This document shows, one piece after another, positions 7,465 through 63,388 of a stretch of DNA of 64,000 nt. The notes under the pieces were generated by a model. That model ran no database searches, was not told the DNA's origin, and saw only the letters and a program-made list of their open reading frames with translations. Position 1 is the first letter of the stretch, and each line of letters opens with the position of its first letter. The stretch comes from Alphaproteobacteria bacterium (lineage in GTDB: Bacteria > Pseudomonadota > Alphaproteobacteria > UBA7985 > JAUIBT01), in NCBI GenBank assembly GCA_030428255.1, contig JAUIBT010000005.1:308-64307 (forward strand). Reading direction: 5' to 3'. The translations under genes were made by a program, and so were the position numbers.

Positions 7465-8553
7465 ATGTCTCGTGCCGGTTGTCAAAACGCGTCCTTCGCG
7501 GCGCTGGTTGCGGGCCTCGCGATGGTGCTGGGGCTCAGCGGCTGTTTTGGCTTCTATGGCCAGGCGGTGCGTGGACAGAGCGAGATCTTTGTCAAACAGC
7601 GCTCCTTGGCCGCCGTGGTTGCGGACCCCAAAACGCCGCCCGAGACCAAGACCAAACTGCGCCAGGTCCATCGCATTCGCCAGTTCGCAGACCGGCGTTT
7701 GGCGCTGCAAGTCGGCGATAACTATGGCTCTTACGTGGATTTGGAGCGCGACTCGGTGGTCTGGAACGTCATGGCTGCGCCCGAGTTCTCCTTGCGGCCA
7801 AAGACTTGGTGCTACCCGGTGGCGGGCTGTGTGGGTTATCGCGGTTTCTTTTCCAAACTAGACGCTGATCGCTTGGTGGCCGAGCTGCAGGCCCAGGGCT
7901 TTGATGTCTACTCGGGCGGGGTCGATGCCTATTCAACGCTGGGCTTCCTGCGCGACCCGGTGCTCAACACCTTTTTGGACAAGAGCGAGCTGGACTTGGC
8001 CGCGCTGTTGTTCCACGAGCTGGCCCACGCCCGCTTTTACCTCAAAGGCGATACGGCGTTTAACGAGAGCTTTGCCACCACAGTCGAATACGCCGGTCTC
8101 AAGCTTTGGCTGCAAGAGAAGGGCGACAACACCACCTTTGATCGCTACCTGGCCTATGAGGCGGCGCTGGAGCAATTCCGTGCGCTGGTGGGCGAAACCC
8201 GCGCTGAGCTGGCCGCGCTCTACCGCCAGCCCTTAAGCCCTACCGTGATGCGCGCGCGCAAGGCCGAGATCATCACCGAGCTGCGCAACCGCTATCAGCG
8301 CCGCAAGCCTGGGCTGAACGGCGTGTCCTTCGACAAGTGGTTCTTTGCCGATATCAACAATGCCAAGCTGAATTCGGTGGCGACCTATGAGGATTTGGTG
8401 CCTGGCTTTACGGTGATCCTCGAGCGCTGCCAGCAGGACTTTCCCTGCTTTTACGCAGCGGTCGAGCGCTTGGCCAAGCGACCCAAAGCCGAGCGCGACG
8501 CTCTGTTGCGCAATCTGGGCCAGGGGCATCAGGGCCAGGGGAAACAGGGGTAG
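7465..8553 (+). CDS. Predicted zinc aminopeptidase (HExxH, PF10023-like) lipoprotein
   Basis: Start chosen at MSRAGCQNASFAALVAGLAMVLGLSGC (lipobox). HELAHA motif present. The ORF track extends the ORF upstream to 7369. Confidence 0.65.
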   Translation: MSRAGCQNASFAALVAGLAMVLGLSGCFGFYGQAVRGQSEIFVKQRSLAAVVADPKTPPETKTKLRQVHRIRQFADRRLALQVGDNYGSYVDLERDSVVWNVMAAPEFSLRPKTWCYPVAGCVGYRGFFSKLDADRLVAELQAQGFDVYSGGVDAYSTLGFLRDPVLNTFLDKSELDLAALLFHELAHARFYLKGDTAFNESFATTVEYAGLKLWLQEKGDNTTFDRYLAYEAALEQFRALVGETRAELAALYRQPLSPTVMRARKAEIITELRNRYQRRKPGLNGVSFDKWFFADINNAKLNSVATYEDLVPGFTVILERCQQDFPCFYAAVERLAKRPKAERDALLRNLGQGHQGQGKQG

Positions 8554-8559
8554 GTCGCC

Positions 8560-8640
8560 AGCCAGGGGTTTGGCGGCCTGGGGTTTGGCGGCCTGGGGTT
8601 TGGTGGCCTGGGGTTTGGTGGCCTGGGGTTTGGTGGCCTA
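8560..8640. repeat. Tandem array of 15-bp unit GGCCTGGGGTTTGG(C/T), about 5.4 copies
   Basis: Read directly. The array fills the whole intergenic gap between the convergent aminopeptidase gene (stop 8553) and the M23 peptidase gene (stop 8643). Confidence 0.85.
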
Positions 8641-8642
8641 AG

Positions 8643-9476
8643 TTATTGGGGCATAGGGCCAGCCACCAAGGCTGGATCAACCCGCACGCCGTTATAGGTG
8701 ACGCGCCAATCCAGATGCGCGCCGGTCGAGCGCCCCGTCGAGCCCACCGTGCCTATAACGAAGCCCTGGGGCACATAATCTCCTTCCTGAACGTGGAAGG
8801 CCTGCATGTGCAAAAAGGCCGAGTTCAACCCATAGCCGTGATCCAAAATCAACGTGCCACCGGAATAGTAATTGTCGGCGTGGATCAGCCGCACCACGCC
8901 ATCGGCGGGCGCGCGGATCGCAGTGCCCTTGGGTTGGACGATATCGACGCCATAGTGCGGGGTCTTGGGTTTGCCGTTCAGCACCCGGTGCGAGCCATAG
9001 ACCCCCGACAGCCGTCCAGTCAGCGGCCAGACAAAGCCCGTATCGAACAAGGGATAGGGGGTCATCACGGCGCGAGCGGCTTTGATTTCGGCCACTTCAC
9101 GATCAATGCGCGCTTGCAGGGCTGCATCACGCGGCGGCGTGACTTTGCCCGGTGGCAGGCCGTCGATCCGCTCGACCTTGTATTGGCGCTGTTTGACGGC
9201 CAAGGTTTGGCGCTGTTTTTGACCATTCGCCAAGGTCTCGACCAGCGGCACTGAGGCAGGCGCATCAAAGGGCAGCGCGATGATCACCCGGCCATCGGGC
9301 AGCACCGGCACGGCCTTGCCGGACACTGTGACGCTGGCGCTGGGCTGGCTTTGGGCCCAAAGCAACGCGCCCTGCTGAGCCGCCTCGGGCTTCAGGACGG
9401 TGAGCGCCTGGGCGGGCAAGCTGCCAACAGCCAAAATGAAAGTCAAAAAGAGGCCCGAAGGGCGAAAACAGCGCAT
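8643..9476 (-). CDS. M23 family metallopeptidase (peptidoglycan endopeptidase), secreted
   Basis: Start chosen at MRCFRPSGLFLTFILAVGSLPAQA (signal peptide). M23 motifs HYGVDIV...GSTGRSTGAHLDWRV. The ORF track extends the ORF upstream to 9719. Confidence 0.75.
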   Translation of the reverse strand: MRCFRPSGLFLTFILAVGSLPAQALTVLKPEAAQQGALLWAQSQPSASVTVSGKAVPVLPDGRVIIALPFDAPASVPLVETLANGQKQRQTLAVKQRQYKVERIDGLPPGKVTPPRDAALQARIDREVAEIKAARAVMTPYPLFDTGFVWPLTGRLSGVYGSHRVLNGKPKTPHYGVDIVQPKGTAIRAPADGVVRLIHADNYYSGGTLILDHGYGLNSAFLHMQAFHVQEGDYVPQGFVIGTVGSTGRSTGAHLDWRVTYNGVRVDPALVAGPMPQ

Positions 9477-35115: not shown

Positions 35116-36003
35116 ATGAGACCAGGCATGAACGGGCGCCGACCGCGCAACCGCAACAACCGTAAATCCCACGTTCCCAATCGGAACCAAGTCTATGAGT
35201 CCTCCGGTCCTGAGAACAAGGTCCGCGGCACGGCTCAGCAGATTTTTGAGAAATATCAGACTCTTGCTCGTGATGCTTTGTCGTCTGGCAACTTGGTGCA
35301 GGCCGAAGCGTTTTTTCAGCACGGCGAGCACTACTTGCGTTTGCACAATATCGCGGTGGAGGCCGCCGCTGAGGCGCAAGAACGCCGCCAGCAGCAGCAA
35401 GGTGAGCGACGCGACACGCGCGGTGAGCGACCAGAACGACCAGAGCACGGCGAACGCCCAGAGCGTGGCGAACGCCCAGAGCGTGGCGAGCGCCCAGAGC
35501 GCGGTGAGCGACCAGAGCGCGGTGAGCGACCAGAGCGCGGCCAAGACAAGCGGCGCGACCGGCGCGACCGCCGGGATCGGCCGGGCGACGACGCAACAGA
35601 CCGCAGCGCAGCCAACCTAGAGGCCAACGACGCAAACGACACCAACCCTGGCGCGAACAAGAGCCCTGCACCCAGTGGTTCGTCGCTTGATCCTTCTGAG
35701 ATGGACCAGCCCGATCTGGGTCAATTGCCCGCTTTCTTGAGCGACAAGCTGCCAGTGCCAGGCGCCAGCAGTGCGGCGGCAGACAGCAGCGGCGATGGCA
35801 CACCCGAGGCGGAAGCCAAGCCCGCTCCCAAACGACGCGGTCGCCCGCCCAAGGCCAAAGTGGCCGAAGACAGCGATTGCGCGCCTGAGGCGGACGCCAA
35901 GCCCGCTCCCAAACGACGTGGCCGTCCGCCCAAGGCCAAAGTGGCCGAAGACAGCGATAGCGCGCCTGCGGGCAACGACGGCGACTTTAGCGACGCAGCC
36001 TGA
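35116..36003 (+). CDS. DUF4167 domain protein with internal GERPER repeats and two AT-hook modules
   Basis: N-terminus MRPGMNGRRPRNRNNRKSHVPNRNQVYESSGPENKVRGTAQQIFEKYQTLARDA matches the conserved alphaproteobacterial DUF4167 N-terminus. Followed by a low-complexity basic/acidic tail. Confidence 0.7.
   Translation: MRPGMNGRRPRNRNNRKSHVPNRNQVYESSGPENKVRGTAQQIFEKYQTLARDALSSGNLVQAEAFFQHGEHYLRLHNIAVEAAAEAQERRQQQQGERRDTRGERPERPEHGERPERGERPERGERPERGERPERGERPERGQDKRRDRRDRRDRPGDDATDRSAANLEANDANDTNPGANKSPAPSGSSLDPSEMDQPDLGQLPAFLSDKLPVPGASSAAADSSGDGTPEAEAKPAPKRRGRPPKAKVAEDSDCAPEADAKPAPKRRGRPPKAKVAEDSDSAPAGNDGDFSDAA
35422..35540 (+). repeat. In-frame 18-bp tandem repeat (GGYGARCGMCCAGAGCGY) encoding GERPER x6 (first copy separated by a PEH insert)
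   Basis: Read directly: GERPERPEHGERPERGERPERGERPERGERPERGERPERG within the DUF4167 gene. Confidence 0.7.
35803..35964 (+). repeat. In-frame 81-bp tandem duplication encoding PEA(E/D)AKPAPKRRGRPPKAKVAEDSD(C/S)A (AT-hook RGRP motif) x2
   Basis: Two 81-bp units differing at about 6 nt, inside the DUF4167 gene. KRRGRPPKAK is an AT-hook-like minor-groove DNA-binding motif. Confidence 0.75.
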
Positions 36004-36115
36004 CGCCGATCCAGTGGAGGGTGATCCATGGGCAAGGCTGTGGTCATCCAACACGGCCAGTTAAGCCGCAAGCGATCACCCGGGGCGAGACGGGTTGCCA
36101 GCCCAAGATCGCAGG

Positions 36116-36209
36116 GCTAGCGCAAAGCCCGAGCAATCGCCCTCGATTGTGCCAAAGGTTCGCAAGGTGCACTTGCGTTAAAATCAAAGCGTTACAACGC
36201 GTTGACTGC
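36116..36209 (+). repeat. Conserved intergenic element, copy A: 41-bp core CTAGCGCAAAGCCCGAGCAATCGCCCTCGATTGTGCCAAAG, variable 22 bp, then AAAATCAAA..GTTA.A.CGCGTTGA.TG
   Basis: The 41-mer (with an internal CAATCG-ccct-CGATTG hairpin) recurs at 60947 with one mismatch, and the downstream block is about 75% conserved. Lies between the DUF4167 gene and holA. Confidence 0.6.
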
Positions 36210-36372
36210 AGGTGCTTCAGCATGACACTGCTCCTCCAAAACAAGTATTATGCTTGTTTGGTTCCAGACGCGCTGCGATCGCTGACGCCCGGCCCGCACC
36301 AGGACCCGCCCCAGGACCACACCGGGTCCCTCTCCGCTTCCCTCGCGTAGCAAATTCGGCTAGGCAGAGGGC

Positions 36373-37431
36373 ATGAAAGCCTCGCCCCACGATCTTGTCC
36401 CTGGCTCCAAGGCCCTGACCCAAGCGCGCTGCGTGCTGCTGTTCGGCAGCAACCCTAGCCTGGGCGAGGCGCTGAAGGACGGCCTGTTGTCCGACTTTGC
36501 AGCCGAAGAGGAGACGCGGGTCTTTGCCGCCGCCGACCTGCGCAAGCAGCCGGGCGCATTCTTGGATGGCCTGGCAGACATGGGCCTGTTCGCCAGCCGT
36601 CAAGCCAGCTTGGTCAAAGAGGCCAGCGACGCCCTGACCAAGACCATCGAACAGGCCGCCGAGGCACTGGCAGGGCGCGACGACCGTCTGTTGGTTCTGC
36701 AAGCGGGTGGCTTGGGTGCAGCCTCCAAGCTGCGCAAGGCCGCCGAGGCCTCGCGCCACATGCTGGCCGTCGCCTGCTATGAGGAGAGCCCCGAGTCGAT
36801 TGTGGCCTTCATCAAGCAAGAGGCCGGTCAGCGCTATAACCGTCAGCTCAGCGACGCTGCGGCCCAGAGCCTGCGCGCGCTGGTTGGCGATGACCGCCTG
36901 CTGATCCGCTCTGCCTTGGCTTCTTGCGATCTTTACGCGCTGGACGAGCCCGACTTGACCCCCGAATTGATCGAGGCCTGCTTGGTCTCGACCGCAGCCT
37001 CCAGCTTGGACCAGGCCCTGCAAGCCACCTTTGACGGCCGCCCGGACACTCTGGCCGCTGCCCTGGGGCGCTTCGAAGGCGACGCCAGCGGCCTGTTGAT
37101 CGCCTGCCAGCGCCACGCACTGCGCTTGGCTCAGGTGCGCGCGGGCCTGGATGGCGGCGGCGCACTGGATGGCCTGATGGCGCGGCTGCGTCCGCCGGTG
37201 TTCTGGAAACAAAAGGCCAGCTTTTCCGCCCAGGTGCGTGCCTACCCGGCCAGCGTGCTGAGCGCCGTCTCCTCGGCGCTGCTCGAGGCCAGCTATAAGG
37301 CACGTGCGCACCACGAGAGCGGGGCGGCCTTCATCGCACAATCGCTGATGTCGGTGGCCCAACGCTTGGCGCGGGTGCGAGCTCAGTTGAAGAGCCAGTC
37401 CCAAGCCCGCCGCCACCCGCCCAGCCGCTAG
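36373..37431 (+). CDS. holA: DNA polymerase III subunit delta
   Basis: 352 aa. LLFGSNPSL..., then a C-terminal region with RLRPPVFWKQKASFSAQVRAYPASVLSAVSSALLEASYKAR, typical of HolA. The longer antisense ORF 36217..37536 is a low-complexity A/G/R shadow. Confidence 0.7.
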   Translation: MKASPHDLVPGSKALTQARCVLLFGSNPSLGEALKDGLLSDFAAEEETRVFAAADLRKQPGAFLDGLADMGLFASRQASLVKEASDALTKTIEQAAEALAGRDDRLLVLQAGGLGAASKLRKAAEASRHMLAVACYEESPESIVAFIKQEAGQRYNRQLSDAAAQSLRALVGDDRLLIRSALASCDLYALDEPDLTPELIEACLVSTAASSLDQALQATFDGRPDTLAAALGRFEGDASGLLIACQRHALRLAQVRAGLDGGGALDGLMARLRPPVFWKQKASFSAQVRAYPASVLSAVSSALLEASYKARAHHESGAAFIAQSLMSVAQRLARVRAQLKSQSQARRHPPSR

Positions 37432-47353: not shown

Positions 47354-47434
47354 CACGGAACCACTGGGCGCACGGAAAACTGGGCGCACGGAAAACTGGG
47401 CTCACGGAAAACTGGGCCCACGGAAAACTGGGTT
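47354..47434. repeat. Tandem array of 16-bp unit CACGGAAAACTGGGCN, 5 copies (first copy 17 bp)
   Basis: Read directly. Located 60 nt upstream of the TRAP permease start and 250 nt downstream of the terminator. Confidence 0.85.
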
Positions 47435-47494
47435 CAGGGCAAAGCCCGCAGAAATAACAACAATAATATTCATACGACACGCAGGAGAGGCAGC

Positions 47495-56190: not shown

Positions 56191-56226
56191 GGCTGGGCTC
56201 CTATCTTCGCGGCGCGCGAGCAGGCA

Positions 56227-56538
56227 TCATTCCGGCGCCAAAGTCACCTTGAGGCCGTCCAGGGCGGCATCAAACTTGAGCTGGCATGACAAGCGAGAAT
56301 TTTCCTGCGGATCAATCGCCAGATCCAGCATGTCTTCTTCTTCTTCCTCTTGGCCGGGCAGCTTGCCGAACCATTCTGGGTCCACGTAGACATGGCAGGT
56401 GGCGCAGGCACAAGAGCCACCGCAAGCGGCCTCGATCGGCAGGCCCGCGTCGCGGATGATTTCCATCACGCGCCAGCCTTCTTTAGCTTCCAAAGTGTGC
56501 TCGACGCCGTTGCGGTCGGTGACAAAGATTTGCGCCAT
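56227..56538 (-). CDS. 2Fe-2S ferredoxin (adrenodoxin/putidaredoxin type)
   Basis: Start chosen at MAQIFVTDRNG. Cys ligands CGGSCACATCHV...C and an acidic loop. Confidence 0.75.
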   Translation of the reverse strand: MAQIFVTDRNGVEHTLEAKEGWRVMEIIRDAGLPIEAACGGSCACATCHVYVDPEWFGKLPGQEEEEEDMLDLAIDPQENSRLSCQLKFDAALDGLKVTLAPE

Positions 56539-58785: not shown

Positions 58786-58963
58786 GATGCTATGCCTCCT
58801 TGCGCGGTGCTCAATGCGAATCCTGAAGCCAGCACTAGGGCATAGTTTGGCTTCTGTCTCAAGTTACTGTCATGCCGCCAGATGGCAAAGGTGCCGCTTC
58901 GAGCCCCCAAAGTGTTGCAATTGCGCACAAATGTTGCGCTGAAAGTTTATGCACCTTGACATG

Positions 58964-58983
58964 AAGTTAGTCAGTGCTAACTT
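58964..58983. promoter_or_regulatory. Candidate MntR/DtxR-family operator: AAGTTA-gtcagtgc-TAACTT inverted repeat overlapping a TTGACA -35-like hexamer
   Basis: Perfect 6-bp arms (TTAG...CTAA half-sites resemble DtxR-family boxes), immediately upstream of the metal-binding protein gene. A DtxR/MntR regulator gene ends the operon. An adjacent GCAATTGC palindrome lies at 58925. Confidence 0.4.
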
Positions 58984-58990
58984 TCTTTTC

Positions 58991-60151
58991 ATGATGCGAA
59001 CCTTGACACCCATGCTAAGAAAATTCTGCCTGGCCAAACATCCGGGCAGCCGCAGCAAAGCCGCATCGGTTTTGGGTGCAGCTTTGGCCTGTCTGGCGGT
59101 TGGCCTGCCCCTCGGCCAGGCGTCGGCAGCGCCGCAGGTGGTGACCACCATCGCGCAGATCGGGCAGCCGCTGAGCGTGATTGCGGGTGACTGCTTGCAG
59201 GTGCGCAGTTTGCTTGGCCCTGGTAGCGACCCCCACCTCTATCGCCCGACGCGCTCGGACATGACGGCTTTGTTGACCGCTGATATCCTGGTCCACAACG
59301 GCGCCCATCTGGAGGCGCAGTTCGCCAAGCCGCTGGACCAGTTTGCTAAACGTAAGCCGGTGTTTGAATTGGCGCTGGCGGTGCCCAACGCGGGCTTGAT
59401 GCGCGACAGTGAGCAGGTCACCGACCCGCACTTTTGGATGAACCCTGCGCTGTGGGCGCGCCTGCTGAGCCGCTTGATCGAAGATTTGGTCGGCCATGAA
59501 CAGGCCAGCGCCATGCTGGACCCAGGCTGTGCTGAGCGTTTGCAGGCCGGCGCGCAAGACTATGAAGCCCGACTGCTGGCTCTGGACGCTTGGACCCAGG
59601 CGCTGTTTTCGAACCTGCCCCGCGAGCGGCGCGTGCTGGTCAGCGCGCACGACGCCTTTGGTTATTTTGGCCAACGCTATGATTTTCAAGTCGAGGGCAT
59701 TCAGGGCCTATCCACCGACAGCCAAGCCAGCCTCAAGCGCATGAACGACCTGGCCGAGCTGTTGGTGACGCGCCAGGTGCCGGTGGCTTTTGTCGAAAGC
59801 AGCATCGACCCCAAGAGCATCGAAACGCTGTTGACGCGTGCGGCGGCGCGCGGCGGATCCGTGGCCTTGGGCGACGCGCTCTTTTCCGATGCCATGGGCC
59901 CAGCAGGCAGCCCGGCTGAGACCTACATCGGCATGTTTGCTCATAATGTGCGCGCCATCGTGCGAGGCTTTGGCCTGCAAGAGAACGGCGCGCCTGAAGT
60001 CGGCGAGCAAAAAATTGGCGAGCAAAAAATTGGCGAGCAAGAAATCGGCCAGGGCAGCGCGGCCCAAAAAGCGCTGTACGATTTGGACGTGACCGCGCCC
60101 GACTTTCCGGCGCGGCTTAAGGAGAGACTGCATGTTGATGCGCTCAAGTGA
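58991..60151 (+). CDS. Metal (Mn/Zn) ABC transporter substrate-binding protein (TroA/ZnuA/cluster A-I)
   Basis: Signal peptide (ASVLGAALACLAVGLPLGQASAAP). Metal-site residues (DPHLYRP, DPHFWMNP, SAHDAFGYF). The start is uncertain (58949, 58991 or 59012), and an operator-like inverted repeat lies inside the longest version. Contains an EQKIG x3 repeat. Confidence 0.75.
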   Translation: MMRTLTPMLRKFCLAKHPGSRSKAASVLGAALACLAVGLPLGQASAAPQVVTTIAQIGQPLSVIAGDCLQVRSLLGPGSDPHLYRPTRSDMTALLTADILVHNGAHLEAQFAKPLDQFAKRKPVFELALAVPNAGLMRDSEQVTDPHFWMNPALWARLLSRLIEDLVGHEQASAMLDPGCAERLQAGAQDYEARLLALDAWTQALFSNLPRERRVLVSAHDAFGYFGQRYDFQVEGIQGLSTDSQASLKRMNDLAELLVTRQVPVAFVESSIDPKSIETLLTRAAARGGSVALGDALFSDAMGPAGSPAETYIGMFAHNVRAIVRGFGLQENGAPEVGEQKIGEQKIGEQEIGQGSAAQKALYDLDVTAPDFPARLKERLHVDALK

Positions 60152-60929
60152 CAAAACCCTGCTGACCCAGGACCTGAGCCAAGCGGCGATCGACCTTAGG
60201 GGTCTGAGGGTCTGCTATGGCGAAGACGAAATCCTGCCTGGCATTGATCTGCAAATTCCGCTGGGCTCGCGCTTTGCCATTTTGGGGCCGAACGGAGCTG
60301 GCAAATCGACCTTGCTCAAGGCTATGCTGGGCCTAGTCCCCAGCCAAGCGGGAAAGGTTCGTTTTCCCCAAGCGCCCCAGGGCAGCGCGGACAGCGCCAA
60401 AGCTAACGGCCTGGTGGCCTATGTGCCCCAGCGCGCCAGCGTGGATTGGCACTTTCCAGCCACCGCGCTGGATGTGGTGACCATGGGCCGCTTTGGCGCG
60501 CGGCGCTGGTACCAGCGTTTGTCGGCGCAGGACAAAGCCCGTGCGGCGGCAGCTCTGGAAGCCGTCGGCCTAACGGCCTTTGCCAAGCACGCCTTGGGCT
60601 CTTTGTCTGGCGGCCAGGCGCAGCGAGTCTTTCTGGCGCGCGCCATTGCCCAGGATGCTCAGATCTTCCTGCTCGACGAGCCGCTGACCGGCATTGATGC
60701 GCCGTCGCAACAGATCATTATCGACCAGCTCCACAGCCTCAATGCCCAGGGCAAGACCGTGGTTGCGGTGCATCACGATTTGCGCACCGCCGGTGAGATC
60801 TTCAGCCACGGGGCTTTGCTCAATCGCGGTCTGGTGGCCAGCGGTTTGATCAGCGATGTCGCCCATCCTCAGGCCCTGGCGCGCGCTTATGGCCTGCCCA
60901 TGGAGGCGCTGGTTCGCCCAGCGGCTTAG
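60132..60929 (+). CDS. Metal ABC transporter ATP-binding protein (ZnuC/TroB-like)
   Basis: Walker A GPNGAGKST. Signature LSGGQAQRVFLARA. Walker B IFLLDEPLTGID. Confidence 0.85.
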   Translation: MLMRSSDKTLLTQDLSQAAIDLRGLRVCYGEDEILPGIDLQIPLGSRFAILGPNGAGKSTLLKAMLGLVPSQAGKVRFPQAPQGSADSAKANGLVAYVPQRASVDWHFPATALDVVTMGRFGARRWYQRLSAQDKARAAAALEAVGLTAFAKHALGSLSGGQAQRVFLARAIAQDAQIFLLDEPLTGIDAPSQQIIIDQLHSLNAQGKTVVAVHHDLRTAGEIFSHGALLNRGLVASGLISDVAHPQALARAYGLPMEALVRPAA

Positions 60930-60946: not shown

Positions 60947-61040
60947 CTAGCGCAAAGCCCGAGCAATCGCCCTTGATTGTGCCAAAGTGACTTGGGGTAT
61001 ATTTGCCTCAAAATCAAATAGTTAGAGCGCGTTGATTGAA
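60947..61040 (+). repeat. Conserved intergenic element, copy B (one mismatch to the 41-bp core of copy A)
   Basis: CTAGCGCAAAGCCCGAGCAATCGCCCTTGATTGTGCCAAAG...AAAATCAAATAGTTAGAGCGCGTTGATTG, sitting inside the metal-transporter operon between the ATPase and permease genes. Confidence 0.6.
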
Positions 61041-61092
61041 TGCAAGACAACGAAACCTGCGCTAGAGCGCCTCTAGGCCGCGACGGGATGCT

Positions 61093-61959
61093 ATGACCCT
61101 AATCGATGTCTTCTTGCTGACCGCCCTAGCGGTCTTTGGTGCGGCTTGCGGTCTGTTGGGTGTCTTCTTGACCCTGCGCGGGCGCACGCTGGTGGTGGAT
61201 GCCATGAGCCATGCGGCGCTGCCCGGAATCGCCTTGGTCGGCTTGGCGGCGGGCTTTGGCTTGATCACGCGCAGCGGCTTTGCCCTGGTGTTGGGCGCGC
61301 TGGTGTTTGCGGCACTGGCGGCGGTGTTGGTACTGGTTCTGCGCCGTCATGCCCGCATCAGCGAGGATTCGGCTATGGCCCTGATCCTCTCAAGTTTCTT
61401 TGGCCTCGGCGTGGTGCTGTTCGGCTGGCTGCAACTGCTGGACGCCAGCCAAACGCTGGGCATTACCAGCTTTGCGCTCGGCCAGGTCGCGACCATGAGC
61501 GGCGGCGAGGCTTGGAGTTTGCTCATTGTGGCCCTGCTGGTGCTGGGGGTGGTGATCGCGGCCTATCGCGGGCTCAGCCTGCTGGTGTTTGACGCCGATT
61601 ATGCGGCGGCGACCGGCTGGCCCTTACTCAAATTGGACTTGCTGTTGATGGCATTGGCGACCGTGCTGCTGGCGGTGGGTTTGCGCTCGGTCGGGGCGAT
61701 CATGCTGTTGGGTCTGGTGGCTGGCCCGGCGCTGACCGGTCTGGCGGGCGCGCGGCGTATGCCGCAAGCCTTGGGTCTGGCGGCGGCCGCTGGGGCTCTA
61801 TCCTGCCTGCTGGGCGGCGGCTTGAGCCTGGTCGGCACCCACGTTCCCACTGGCCCGGCGATCATCTTGGTGGCCGCTGCTTTGTTGACACTGGTGCTGG
61901 TTTGGCGCGCATTGCGTCCCCGCACCTTGAGTGTCACGGCAAAGGCTGCGCGGATATGA
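61093..61959 (+). CDS. ABC-3 family metal transporter permease (TroC/ZnuB-like)
   Basis: 288 aa with 8-9 TM helices. DAMSHAALPG motif. Confidence 0.8.
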   Translation: MTLIDVFLLTALAVFGAACGLLGVFLTLRGRTLVVDAMSHAALPGIALVGLAAGFGLITRSGFALVLGALVFAALAAVLVLVLRRHARISEDSAMALILSSFFGLGVVLFGWLQLLDASQTLGITSFALGQVATMSGGEAWSLLIVALLVLGVVIAAYRGLSLLVFDADYAAATGWPLLKLDLLLMALATVLLAVGLRSVGAIMLLGLVAGPALTGLAGARRMPQALGLAAAAGALSCLLGGGLSLVGTHVPTGPAIILVAAALLTLVLVWRALRPRTLSVTAKAARI

Positions 61960-62917: not shown

Positions 62918-63388
62918 ATGCTTCCCGACCCTGCCGATCAAGCCTCCAACGATTCTGACGACCTGAGCGCTCCAGAAGCCCCGGGCGATATCGCTGCGCG
63001 CTTTGATCGGACACGCTCGGACCACAAGACCGAGCTGACCGAAGACTATGTGGAGATGATCGCCCAGTTGATCGAAGAGACGGGTGAAGCGCGAGCCGCC
63101 GACCTTTCGGCGCGTTTCGGGGTCACTCCGGCGACGGTCAATAACACGGTTCAACGCCTTCAACGCGACGGCCTGGTCAATTCCGAGCCTTACCGTTCCA
63201 TATTCCTAACAGACAAGGGACGTGCGCTTGCCGAGGCCTGTGCGCTGCGCCACGATGTGGTGGTTGCCTTCTTGCTGTCGCTGGGCGTGCCGGATGAGGT
63301 GGCGCGCTTGGACGCTGAAGGGATCGAACATCATTGCAGCCAAGCAACCTTAGAGGCCATGCAGCGCTTCTTGTCCGAAAACGTGTAA
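62918..63388 (+). CDS. DtxR/MntR family metal-dependent transcriptional repressor
   Basis: wHTH (LTEDYVEMIAQLIEETGEARAADLSARFGVTPATVNNTVQRLQRDGLV) and metal-binding helix (ACALRHDVVVAFL...EHHCS). Confidence 0.75.
   Translation: MLPDPADQASNDSDDLSAPEAPGDIAARFDRTRSDHKTELTEDYVEMIAQLIEETGEARAADLSARFGVTPATVNNTVQRLQRDGLVNSEPYRSIFLTDKGRALAEACALRHDVVVAFLLSLGVPDEVARLDAEGIEHHCSQATLEAMQRFLSENV

Follow-up and report, generated by a model that had tools for sequence, protein, structure and literature searches.

What is the short sequence that occurs twice, almost unchanged, in a 64,000-nucleotide stretch of DNA from an uncultured alphaproteobacterium (contig JAUIBT010000005.1, positions 308 to 64,307; the whole stretch is called the window below)? 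An earlier note on this DNA had described an intergenic element of about 95 bp, present as a copy A and a copy B, and had offered a promoter or operator motif, a repetitive extragenic palindrome (REP)-like element, a small RNA and a leader as possible roles. We found that both copies are real, but that they belong to a longer, discrete unit of about 119 bp with sharp ends, which is found between genes at many unrelated places, in both orientations, and is present or absent at orthologous sites. [quoted passage not shown] The family is so far confined to one uncultured lineage of the Alphaproteobacteria and adds to a known kind of selfish small repeat.

Copies A and B share the 41-mer CTAGCGCAAAGCCCGAGCAATCGCCCT(C/T)GATTGTGCCAAAG, which lies on the plus strand at 36117-36157 and 60947-60987. 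At up to three mismatches this 41-mer matched the window only at these two sites and had no match in 100 dinucleotide shuffles, and a repeat scan gave the two copies as the sole long dispersed repeat of the window. The single difference between them, C in copy A and T in copy B, changes a G-C pair of the hairpin CAATCG-CCCT-YGATTG into a G-T pair. A second conserved block, AAAATCAAA..GTTA.A.CGCGTTGA, matched twice with none expected, at 36180-36205 and 61010-61035, and is separated from the 41-mer by a variable spacer of 22 nt, which in copy A holds the hairpin CGCAAG-gtgca-CTTGCG at 36161-36177 (P2). Up to this point the sequence agrees with the description in the earlier note. The length needed correction: in an alignment of eight copies the full unit spans 36117-36236 in copy A (about 120 bp; cmsearch 100.3 bits, nhmmer 5.8e-34) and 60947-61065 in copy B (119 bp, with CTAG at 60947-60950 and 61062-61065; cmsearch 125.5 bits), and the 94-bp span given before corresponds to the 5′ four-fifths of the element. 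In copy A the 5′ end is sharp at CTAG and the 3′ end is degenerate, with GCTCCTC where other copies have GCTCTAG. Inside the 41-mer, a 28-nt core, CGAGCAATCGCCCTCGATTGTGCCAAAG, has a single variable position (C/T) and is otherwise invariant across five copies of two species. It is located at 36130-36157 in copy A and, with T at the variable position, at 60960-60987 in copy B. The core contains the first hairpin (P1) at 36133-36150 (G-CAATCG/CCCT/CGATTG-T) and 60963-60980 (CAATCG/CCCT/TGATTG, with a closing G-T pair), respectively.

To find further members, the exact core was scanned in one genome per species, and additional loci were fetched around homologues of two flanking genes and searched by blastn, nhmmer and a covariance model. 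The exact-core scan gave three copies (L1, L2 and L3, in loci L001, L002 and L003), all in the metagenome-assembled genome (MAG) JAUIHE01, "Alphaproteobacteria bacterium Co_bin.199". Five additional members came from the homologue loci: copy C (L012:6836-6954) belongs to the window species and follows about 6.5 kb after the end of the window, copy B′ (L018:902-1020) comes from a strain that shares 98% DNA identity and is orthologous to copy B, copy D (L007:15234-15340, MAG JAUIDR01) has a 12-nt deletion in its core, and copies F (L014:14617-14724, MAG JAUIDR01) and E (approximately L005:805-923, on a Logan contig) are relics. The concern that only the two window copies might exist, without any in relatives, is thereby settled, as the family has 10 members in at least four genomes. 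From end to end, four copies measure 119 bp and others 118, 114 and 107 bp, with an overall range of 107-120 bp. The termini follow 5′-CTA(G/A)(A/C)GC ... GC(K)(Y)TAG-3′, and similarity breaks off abruptly at the 5′ side. No start codon or open frame is conserved across the copies, and a scan for the core at up to three mismatches found no second core in the window beyond those of copies A and B. None of the 10 loci has an inverted partner nearby. The G+C content of the element is 44-55%, compared with 61% for the window.

All copies are intergenic, while their orientation relative to genes varies. For instance, L1 comes after a terminator, between convergent genes, and is directed towards the 3′ end of gmk, whereas L2 is antisense to both neighbours and separates the end of one gene from the start of another. 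L3 has its first bases on a stop codon, with a convergent gene ahead of it, copy C is antisense between two minus-strand genes, and copies A and B are co-oriented with their neighbours. The neighbouring genes, among them gmk, holA, a metal ABC transporter, rsmB and a glyoxalase gene, have no common function. At three orthologous sites (B, D and F) one genome has the element and a relative lacks it. Site B is filled only in the window species and in the strain of locus L018, and the same operon with a short, empty gap is found in L013 (JAUIHE01), in L014-L016 (JAUIDR01), in L017 and in L019. Site D is filled in JAUIDR01 and empty in JAUIHE01; the flanks align, GCATAG plus 11 nt is present in both, and the filled site reads CTAA-element-CTAG-GAATGCC where the empty one reads CAAG-GAATGCC, with exactly matching flank lengths. 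At site F the gap measures 331 nt in the filled locus (L014) and 116 nt in the window species, where it is empty; the terminator and the gene end that flank it are conserved. In the region upstream of holA in relatives the element is absent and the neighbouring genes differ as well.

The distribution of changes within the element separates the core from the rest. Among A, B, L1, L2 and L3 the core (columns 9-41 of the alignment) is identical at 31-33 of 33 positions (94-100%), whereas the other 72 columns are only 54-72% identical in the same five copies (Fisher p 8e-4 to 2e-7). The holA proteins of the species that carry these core-identical copies are about 80% identical. However, this uniformity is limited to the copies that still look "young", and the core is increasingly decayed in copies C, D, E and F. 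Moreover, when copy B was compared to its orthologue B′, 9 of 119 positions of the element (7.6%) and 3 of 41 in the 41-mer were different, while the third codon positions of the flanking genes differed at 36 of 863 (4.2%). Because B and B′ diverge no more slowly than these third positions and because copies C to F decay, a resident copy is not shielded by selection and decays at about the neutral rate. A core that is uniform among dispersed copies and yet unconstrained in place would thus be needed for making new copies rather than for a task at the locus.

The ends of the unit suggest how new copies may arise. The tetranucleotides at the two ends are CTAG/CTAG in copies B and F, CGAG/CGAG in C, CTAA/CTAG in L2, L3 and D, and CTAG/TTAG in L1. 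Seven of the eight intact copies have TA within C-TA-R or Y-TA-G at both ends; copy C has GA at both. The change in copy C, CGAG at both ends where others have CTAG, is direct and not inverted, and points to a duplicated target rather than a closing helix, since a stem would receive G-A and A-G mismatches. A long-range closing stem as the cause of the CTAG ends was rejected on this ground. Together with the single CAAG at the empty site D, the ends of copy C fit a CTAG-like target with a duplication of 2 or 4 bp. Bacterial MITEs are shorter than 200 bp, non-coding and richer in A+T, and they have a terminal TA and target-site duplications (PMC2229807). Elements of the IS630/Tc1-mariner group duplicate TA, and IS630 favours TA in a CTAG context according to Tenzen & Ohtsubo (1991) as cited in PMC2170065, while the target-site duplications of IS5 are 4 bp long and of the form YTAR (PMC5009759). 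We propose that a transposase supplied in trans would insert new copies at CTAG-like (YTAR) targets and would duplicate either the central TA or the whole tetranucleotide, in the manner of the DDE transposases of the IS630/Tc1-mariner and IS5 types. The subterminal core of 28-33 nt with its hairpin of 6-7 bp is the probable cis site for that enzyme, and effects on neighbouring genes would be by-products of insertion, not the reason for the element.

The family is thus small, non-coding, multi-copy and polymorphic in its insertions, as MITEs are, but several observations weigh against this assignment. The terminal inverted repeats (TIRs) comprise only 7-8 bp (CTAGMGC/GCKCTAG), including the putative target nucleotides; at positions 8-36 the two ends were no more alike than shuffles (p 0.08-0.99), so that the long TIRs usual in MITEs derived from IS630 or IS5 are missing. 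The strongly conserved block is present at one end only, which is unexpected from a DDE transposase that acts on two ends. No parent insertion sequence (IS) or transposase gene was found in the loci fetched, which amount to about 170 kb. CTAA at the 5′ end faces CTAG at the 3′ end in four copies, so these direct repeats are imperfect, and the argument for direct repeats depends on copy C alone. The comparisons of filled and empty sites pair genomes with only about 80% protein identity, with no near-identical strain among them. Finally, the exact-core scan gave three matches in a single MAG and no genuine copy in contigs of the JGI metagenomes. The sole JGI match to a 21-nt core (L004) lies inside a gene for a Rieske protein with unrelated flanks and was rejected as chance.

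Could the copies instead be kept for a task of the host? A regulon's operator or promoter, with the palindrome CAATCG-N4-CGATTG as the binding site through which an alternative sigma factor or a dimeric regulator would control the downstream genes, is highly improbable. The 6-4-6 inverted repeat of the core is typical of sites for dimeric regulators, both window copies lie upstream of plus-strand genes, and the operon of copy B ends with a gene for a DtxR/MntR-type repressor; yet L2 and C point away from or against all of their neighbours, L1 and L3 lie between convergent gene ends, and the genes next to the copies are functionally unrelated. The operon of copy B also exists in four relatives with an element-free gap, and a conserved unit of 119 bp with fixed ends is far above operator size. 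Neither an intrinsic terminator nor a sigma-70 promoter was found inside copy B, and none is conserved across the copies, just as no sigma-70-type hexamers are conserved in the element; on the minus strand the spacing from TGGCAC to TTGCT is wrong for sigma-54. The promoter, operator and leader roles proposed earlier are therefore not borne out by the placement of the copies, the empty operons and the unconstrained copy B, and nothing positive was found for copy B as an internal promoter or processing site. Sites for sigma-54, CtrA and EcfG, as well as dif/Xer, attC and CRISPR-repeat sequences, were dropped by eye because spacings and consensus did not fit. We also give little credence to a structured-RNA family, in which a trans-acting small RNA or a cis-acting mRNA element with a functional 28-nt hairpin core would be retained for host use. 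Its best arguments come from the pairing in the alignment. P1 was paired in 98% of the cells (position by copy) of the eight copies, and all tolerated non-Watson-Crick cells were G-U on the plus strand; the corresponding values were 84% for P2, 65% for the 3′ hairpin P3 and 82% for the terminal repeat. P2 differs in sequence between A and B with its pairing kept, and the proposed structure as a whole was paired in 81% of cells, compared with 31-38% when the partners were slid. The near-identity of the core across two species described above would also fit an RNA. However, the z-scores of single-copy folds against shuffles were inconsistent (-0.6, -1.9, -0.4, +0.9 and -5.1), and the covariation score of 0.257 was equalled by 17 of 500 shuffles and lies within the range for related unstructured sequences. 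Pairs changed on both sides numbered 7 against a shuffle mean of 5.6, and RNAalifold retained only P1 and an invariant outer helix. Rfam gave 0 matches at the gathering threshold over the whole window, and around both copies at E<=10 only a chance match of 14 bits to a plastid intron model. Orthologous copies of B diverge at or above the synonymous rate, three core changes included, no conserved promoter or terminator accompanies the unit, and the element is missing from orthologous loci of relatives. These tests point only weakly to a selected RNA fold, and the small-RNA suggestion of the earlier note gains little from them.

The folding data raise another question, namely whether a single strand is the substrate of mobility. 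Cells of P2 were paired at 84% on the plus strand but only 49% on the minus strand, and P1 and P2 together contained 26 G-U/G-T cells on the plus strand and 0 A-C. If folding matters, it is consequently the plus strand that folds, either as RNA or as single-stranded DNA (ssDNA), because G-U/G-T is tolerated there and A-C is not seen. A selfish repeat moved as ssDNA by an HUH/Y1 enzyme, either an IS200/IS605 TnpA or a REP-associated RAYT, would account for this, although we consider it unlikely. Such an enzyme would read a subterminal hairpin on one strand and cut at a distant tetranucleotide, with the left CTAR as the target and the right CTAG as the element's own cleavage site. This agrees with the asymmetric conservation, in which there is one hairpin core, 13-16 nt in from the 5′ boundary, and no long TIRs, with the weaker P3 at 7-13 nt inside the 3′ end, and with the published behaviour of IS608 TnpA, whose recognition sites are imperfect subterminal palindromes and which cuts some way off, using guides 5′ of the hairpin foot (PMC3201880). 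The three copies on the source contig all have the same direction, but three are too few for a replication-strand bias and the GC skew of the window is flat. Against an HUH enzyme stands that IS200/IS605 elements make no target duplication, whereas CGAG stands at either end of copy C and a single CAAG at the empty site D. Of the features of IS200/IS605 elements and PATEs, the family has the strand-specific 5′ hairpin and the lack of long TIRs, but its 3′ hairpin is weak, paired in only 65% of cells and unlike P1 in sequence, and its ends look duplicated. In addition, no Y1_Tnp match was present in the Pfam lists of the fetched loci, which cover only about 170 kb. A broader formulation takes the element as one-ended and hairpin-guided, moving through a single-stranded intermediate of the plus strand (ssDNA with an HUH enzyme, or RNA), or as a host-recruited structured RNA that spreads by transposition; this is quite unlikely in our estimate, and in such a case the invariant 28-nt hairpin core could be the sole cis requirement. 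Should none of the transposase families known match the element in these genomes, it would then represent a new mobilisation module for small bacterial repeats.

The MITE-like interpretation places the element beside several known repeats. RUP of Streptococcus pneumoniae (107 bp) and the Correia/NEMIS elements of Neisseria (about 105-155 bp) are MITEs mobilised by IS630/Tc1-mariner transposases. The element resembles them in being about 100-150 bp long, non-coding, intergenic, multi-copy and A+T-richer, with hairpins and a terminal TA in a CTAG context, in its presence/absence variation and in that it may sit co-transcribed in operons (PMC2229807, PMC2170065). It differs in its TIRs, 7-8 bp compared to about 20-26 bp in these families, in its one-ended conserved block and in that no matching IS was found; no similarity was detected in a viral-contig scan or by blastn against 72,556 plasmids, rhizobial megaplasmids included. 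The IS5 signature is approached by the intact copies with CTAG or CTAA as their first and CTAG or TTAG as their last tetranucleotide, all of them YTAR (PMC5009759), and by the repeated tetranucleotide of copy C and the single one at the empty site D. In contrast, CGAG and CAAG are not YTAR, the ends of four copies are CTAA and CTAG, and IS5-like TIRs are lacking.

With REP/BIME sequences and their RAYTs, with IS200/IS605 and with PATEs, the element shares a dispersed extragenic location, a short imperfect palindrome, a conserved 5′ tetranucleotide, a strand-specific hairpin that tolerates G-T and the lack of long TIRs (PMC2817692, PMC3201880). REPs are palindromes of 20-40 nt, usually present in more than 100 copies and often grouped in clusters or inverted pairs, whereas the element is a fixed unit of 119 bp with a single core and without an inverted partner nearby in the 10 loci. 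Moreover, there is evidence of target duplication, and no RAYT or TnpA gene was identified in the fetched loci. The label REP-like from the earlier note therefore holds only in the sense of a dispersed intergenic repeat. Alphaproteobacteria also have other intergenic palindrome mosaics. RIME1 and RIME2 of rhizobia and Bru-RS1/2 of Brucella are about 100-150 bp in size. The element is like these and like RPE of Rickettsia, which is described in PMC2229807, in kind and in length. It has no blastn similarity in the plasmid collection and no Rfam family, and whereas RPE inserts in frame into genes, all copies of the element are intergenic. The ERIC/IRU elements of enterobacteria (127 bp) are likewise intergenic units of fixed length that are co-transcribed within operons, where folding of their RNA can change how stable the mRNA is (PMC2229807). 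A single long imperfect palindrome makes up ERIC, while the element is a chain of short hairpins with a closing repeat of 7 bp, and the sequences are unrelated.

What would such insertions do to the genes next to them? The gene context given in the earlier note was right by Pfam and homologue evidence. Copy A lies between a DUF4167 gene at 35116-36003 (Pfam 3.9e-27) and a holA-like open reading frame of 352 amino acids at 36373-37431, whose distant homologues are named DNA polymerase III subunit delta. Copy B lies in an operon of a ZnuA-like binding protein gene (58949-60151), an ABC ATPase gene (60132-60929) and, as the first of the ABC-3 permease genes, 61093-61959; the ATPase stop codon is 18 nt before the element and the permease start 27 nt after it. 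Copy B must be transcribed together with this operon, and by analogy with ERIC and NEMIS it could alter mRNA stability or the balance of ATPase and permease expression (PMC2229807). An effect on mRNA stability through the RNA fold is, by the same analogy, the most likely side effect of copy B. For copy A, the sole sigma-70-like site upstream of holA is ATGACA-18-TATTAT at 36222-36251 (0.0 expected in shuffles), of which the -35 is formed by the element's final bases. About 120 nt separate the site from the holA start, and the element-derived -35 may contribute to holA expression. An AT-rich hairpin, CCAAAACAAG-TATTAT-GCTTGTTTGG, in the region 36222-36265 has the -10 of this site in its loop. 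Neither effect, on the mRNA of copy B or on the promoter at copy A, is conserved across copies.

Several other features of these loci were recorded. The operon of copy B, with the ZnuA-like, ATPase and two permease genes, is closed at 62918-63388 (L011:11826-12296) by a gene for a repressor of the DtxR/MntR family (Fe_dep_repress), which suggests that the operon encodes a manganese or iron transporter and not a zinc transporter. In the DUF4167 gene, in-frame tandem repeats at 35418-35537 and 35792-35953, with an 81-bp duplication (90% identity) and 18-bp repeats, make its C-terminal half a low-complexity, expanding region; an exact-protein look-up of the product gave no record, and the concatenated six-frame peptides of the element core matched nothing in the protein database at E<=10. 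A covariance-model match at 56204-56299 (18.8 bits, rough E 0.01) overlaps the 3′ end of a ferredoxin gene and was treated as spurious. It contains the element-like patches GCCAAAGTCACCTTGAGG, GGCATCAAAC and GCATGACAAG, and the intergenic gap there is only 36 nt; the match is probably chance, and could be a very old relic. Just 3′ of L1, at about 835-888 of locus L001 on the minus strand, two copies of a 28-bp tandem repeat, GGGTTGCTAGGAAAGGGGCCCTAGGAAC, were seen. Its unit opens with the 5′ junction of L1, GGGTTG-CTAG, has another CTAG 10 nt on and resembles two junctions without the element, and the related sequence GGGTTGCCAG is present 16 nt upstream of copy A (36093-36102). At 8546-8665 the window has about 6 tandem copies of a 15-bp unit, GCCTGGGGTTTGG(C/T)G, and the Logan contig L021 ends within this array. 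A similar 15-nt array (GGTGCCGGTTTTGTT / GGTGCTAGTTTTATT / GGTACCAGTTCTATT) adjoins relic F at about L014:14486-14535, and these arrays may form a second repeat family of the lineage. A 16-bp tandem repeat, ACTGGGCGCACGGAAA, with about 5 copies lies at 47363-47442.

For annotation, the two window sites are copies of a repeat family and not regulators specific to the holA locus or to that of the metal ABC transporter. Position 1 of the k-mer-based Logan contig L020 (run ERR3428545) corresponds to 36130 of the window and thereby coincides with the start of the 28-nt core, as is expected when an assembly stops at a repeat. The family accounts for contig breaks in short-read assemblies of the lineage, and breaks induced by the core could be used to count copies in such assemblies. 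Its insertion polymorphisms are possible strain markers in metagenomes, and copy B illustrates that an essential-looking operon tolerates a structured insert of 119 bp between the genes for its ATPase and permease. To the catalogue of small mobile repeats of bacteria the family makes a modest addition, from an uncultured alphaproteobacterial clade. Its combination of one highly conserved subterminal hairpin core, very short TIRs and CTAG-type ends could point to the mobilising enzyme.

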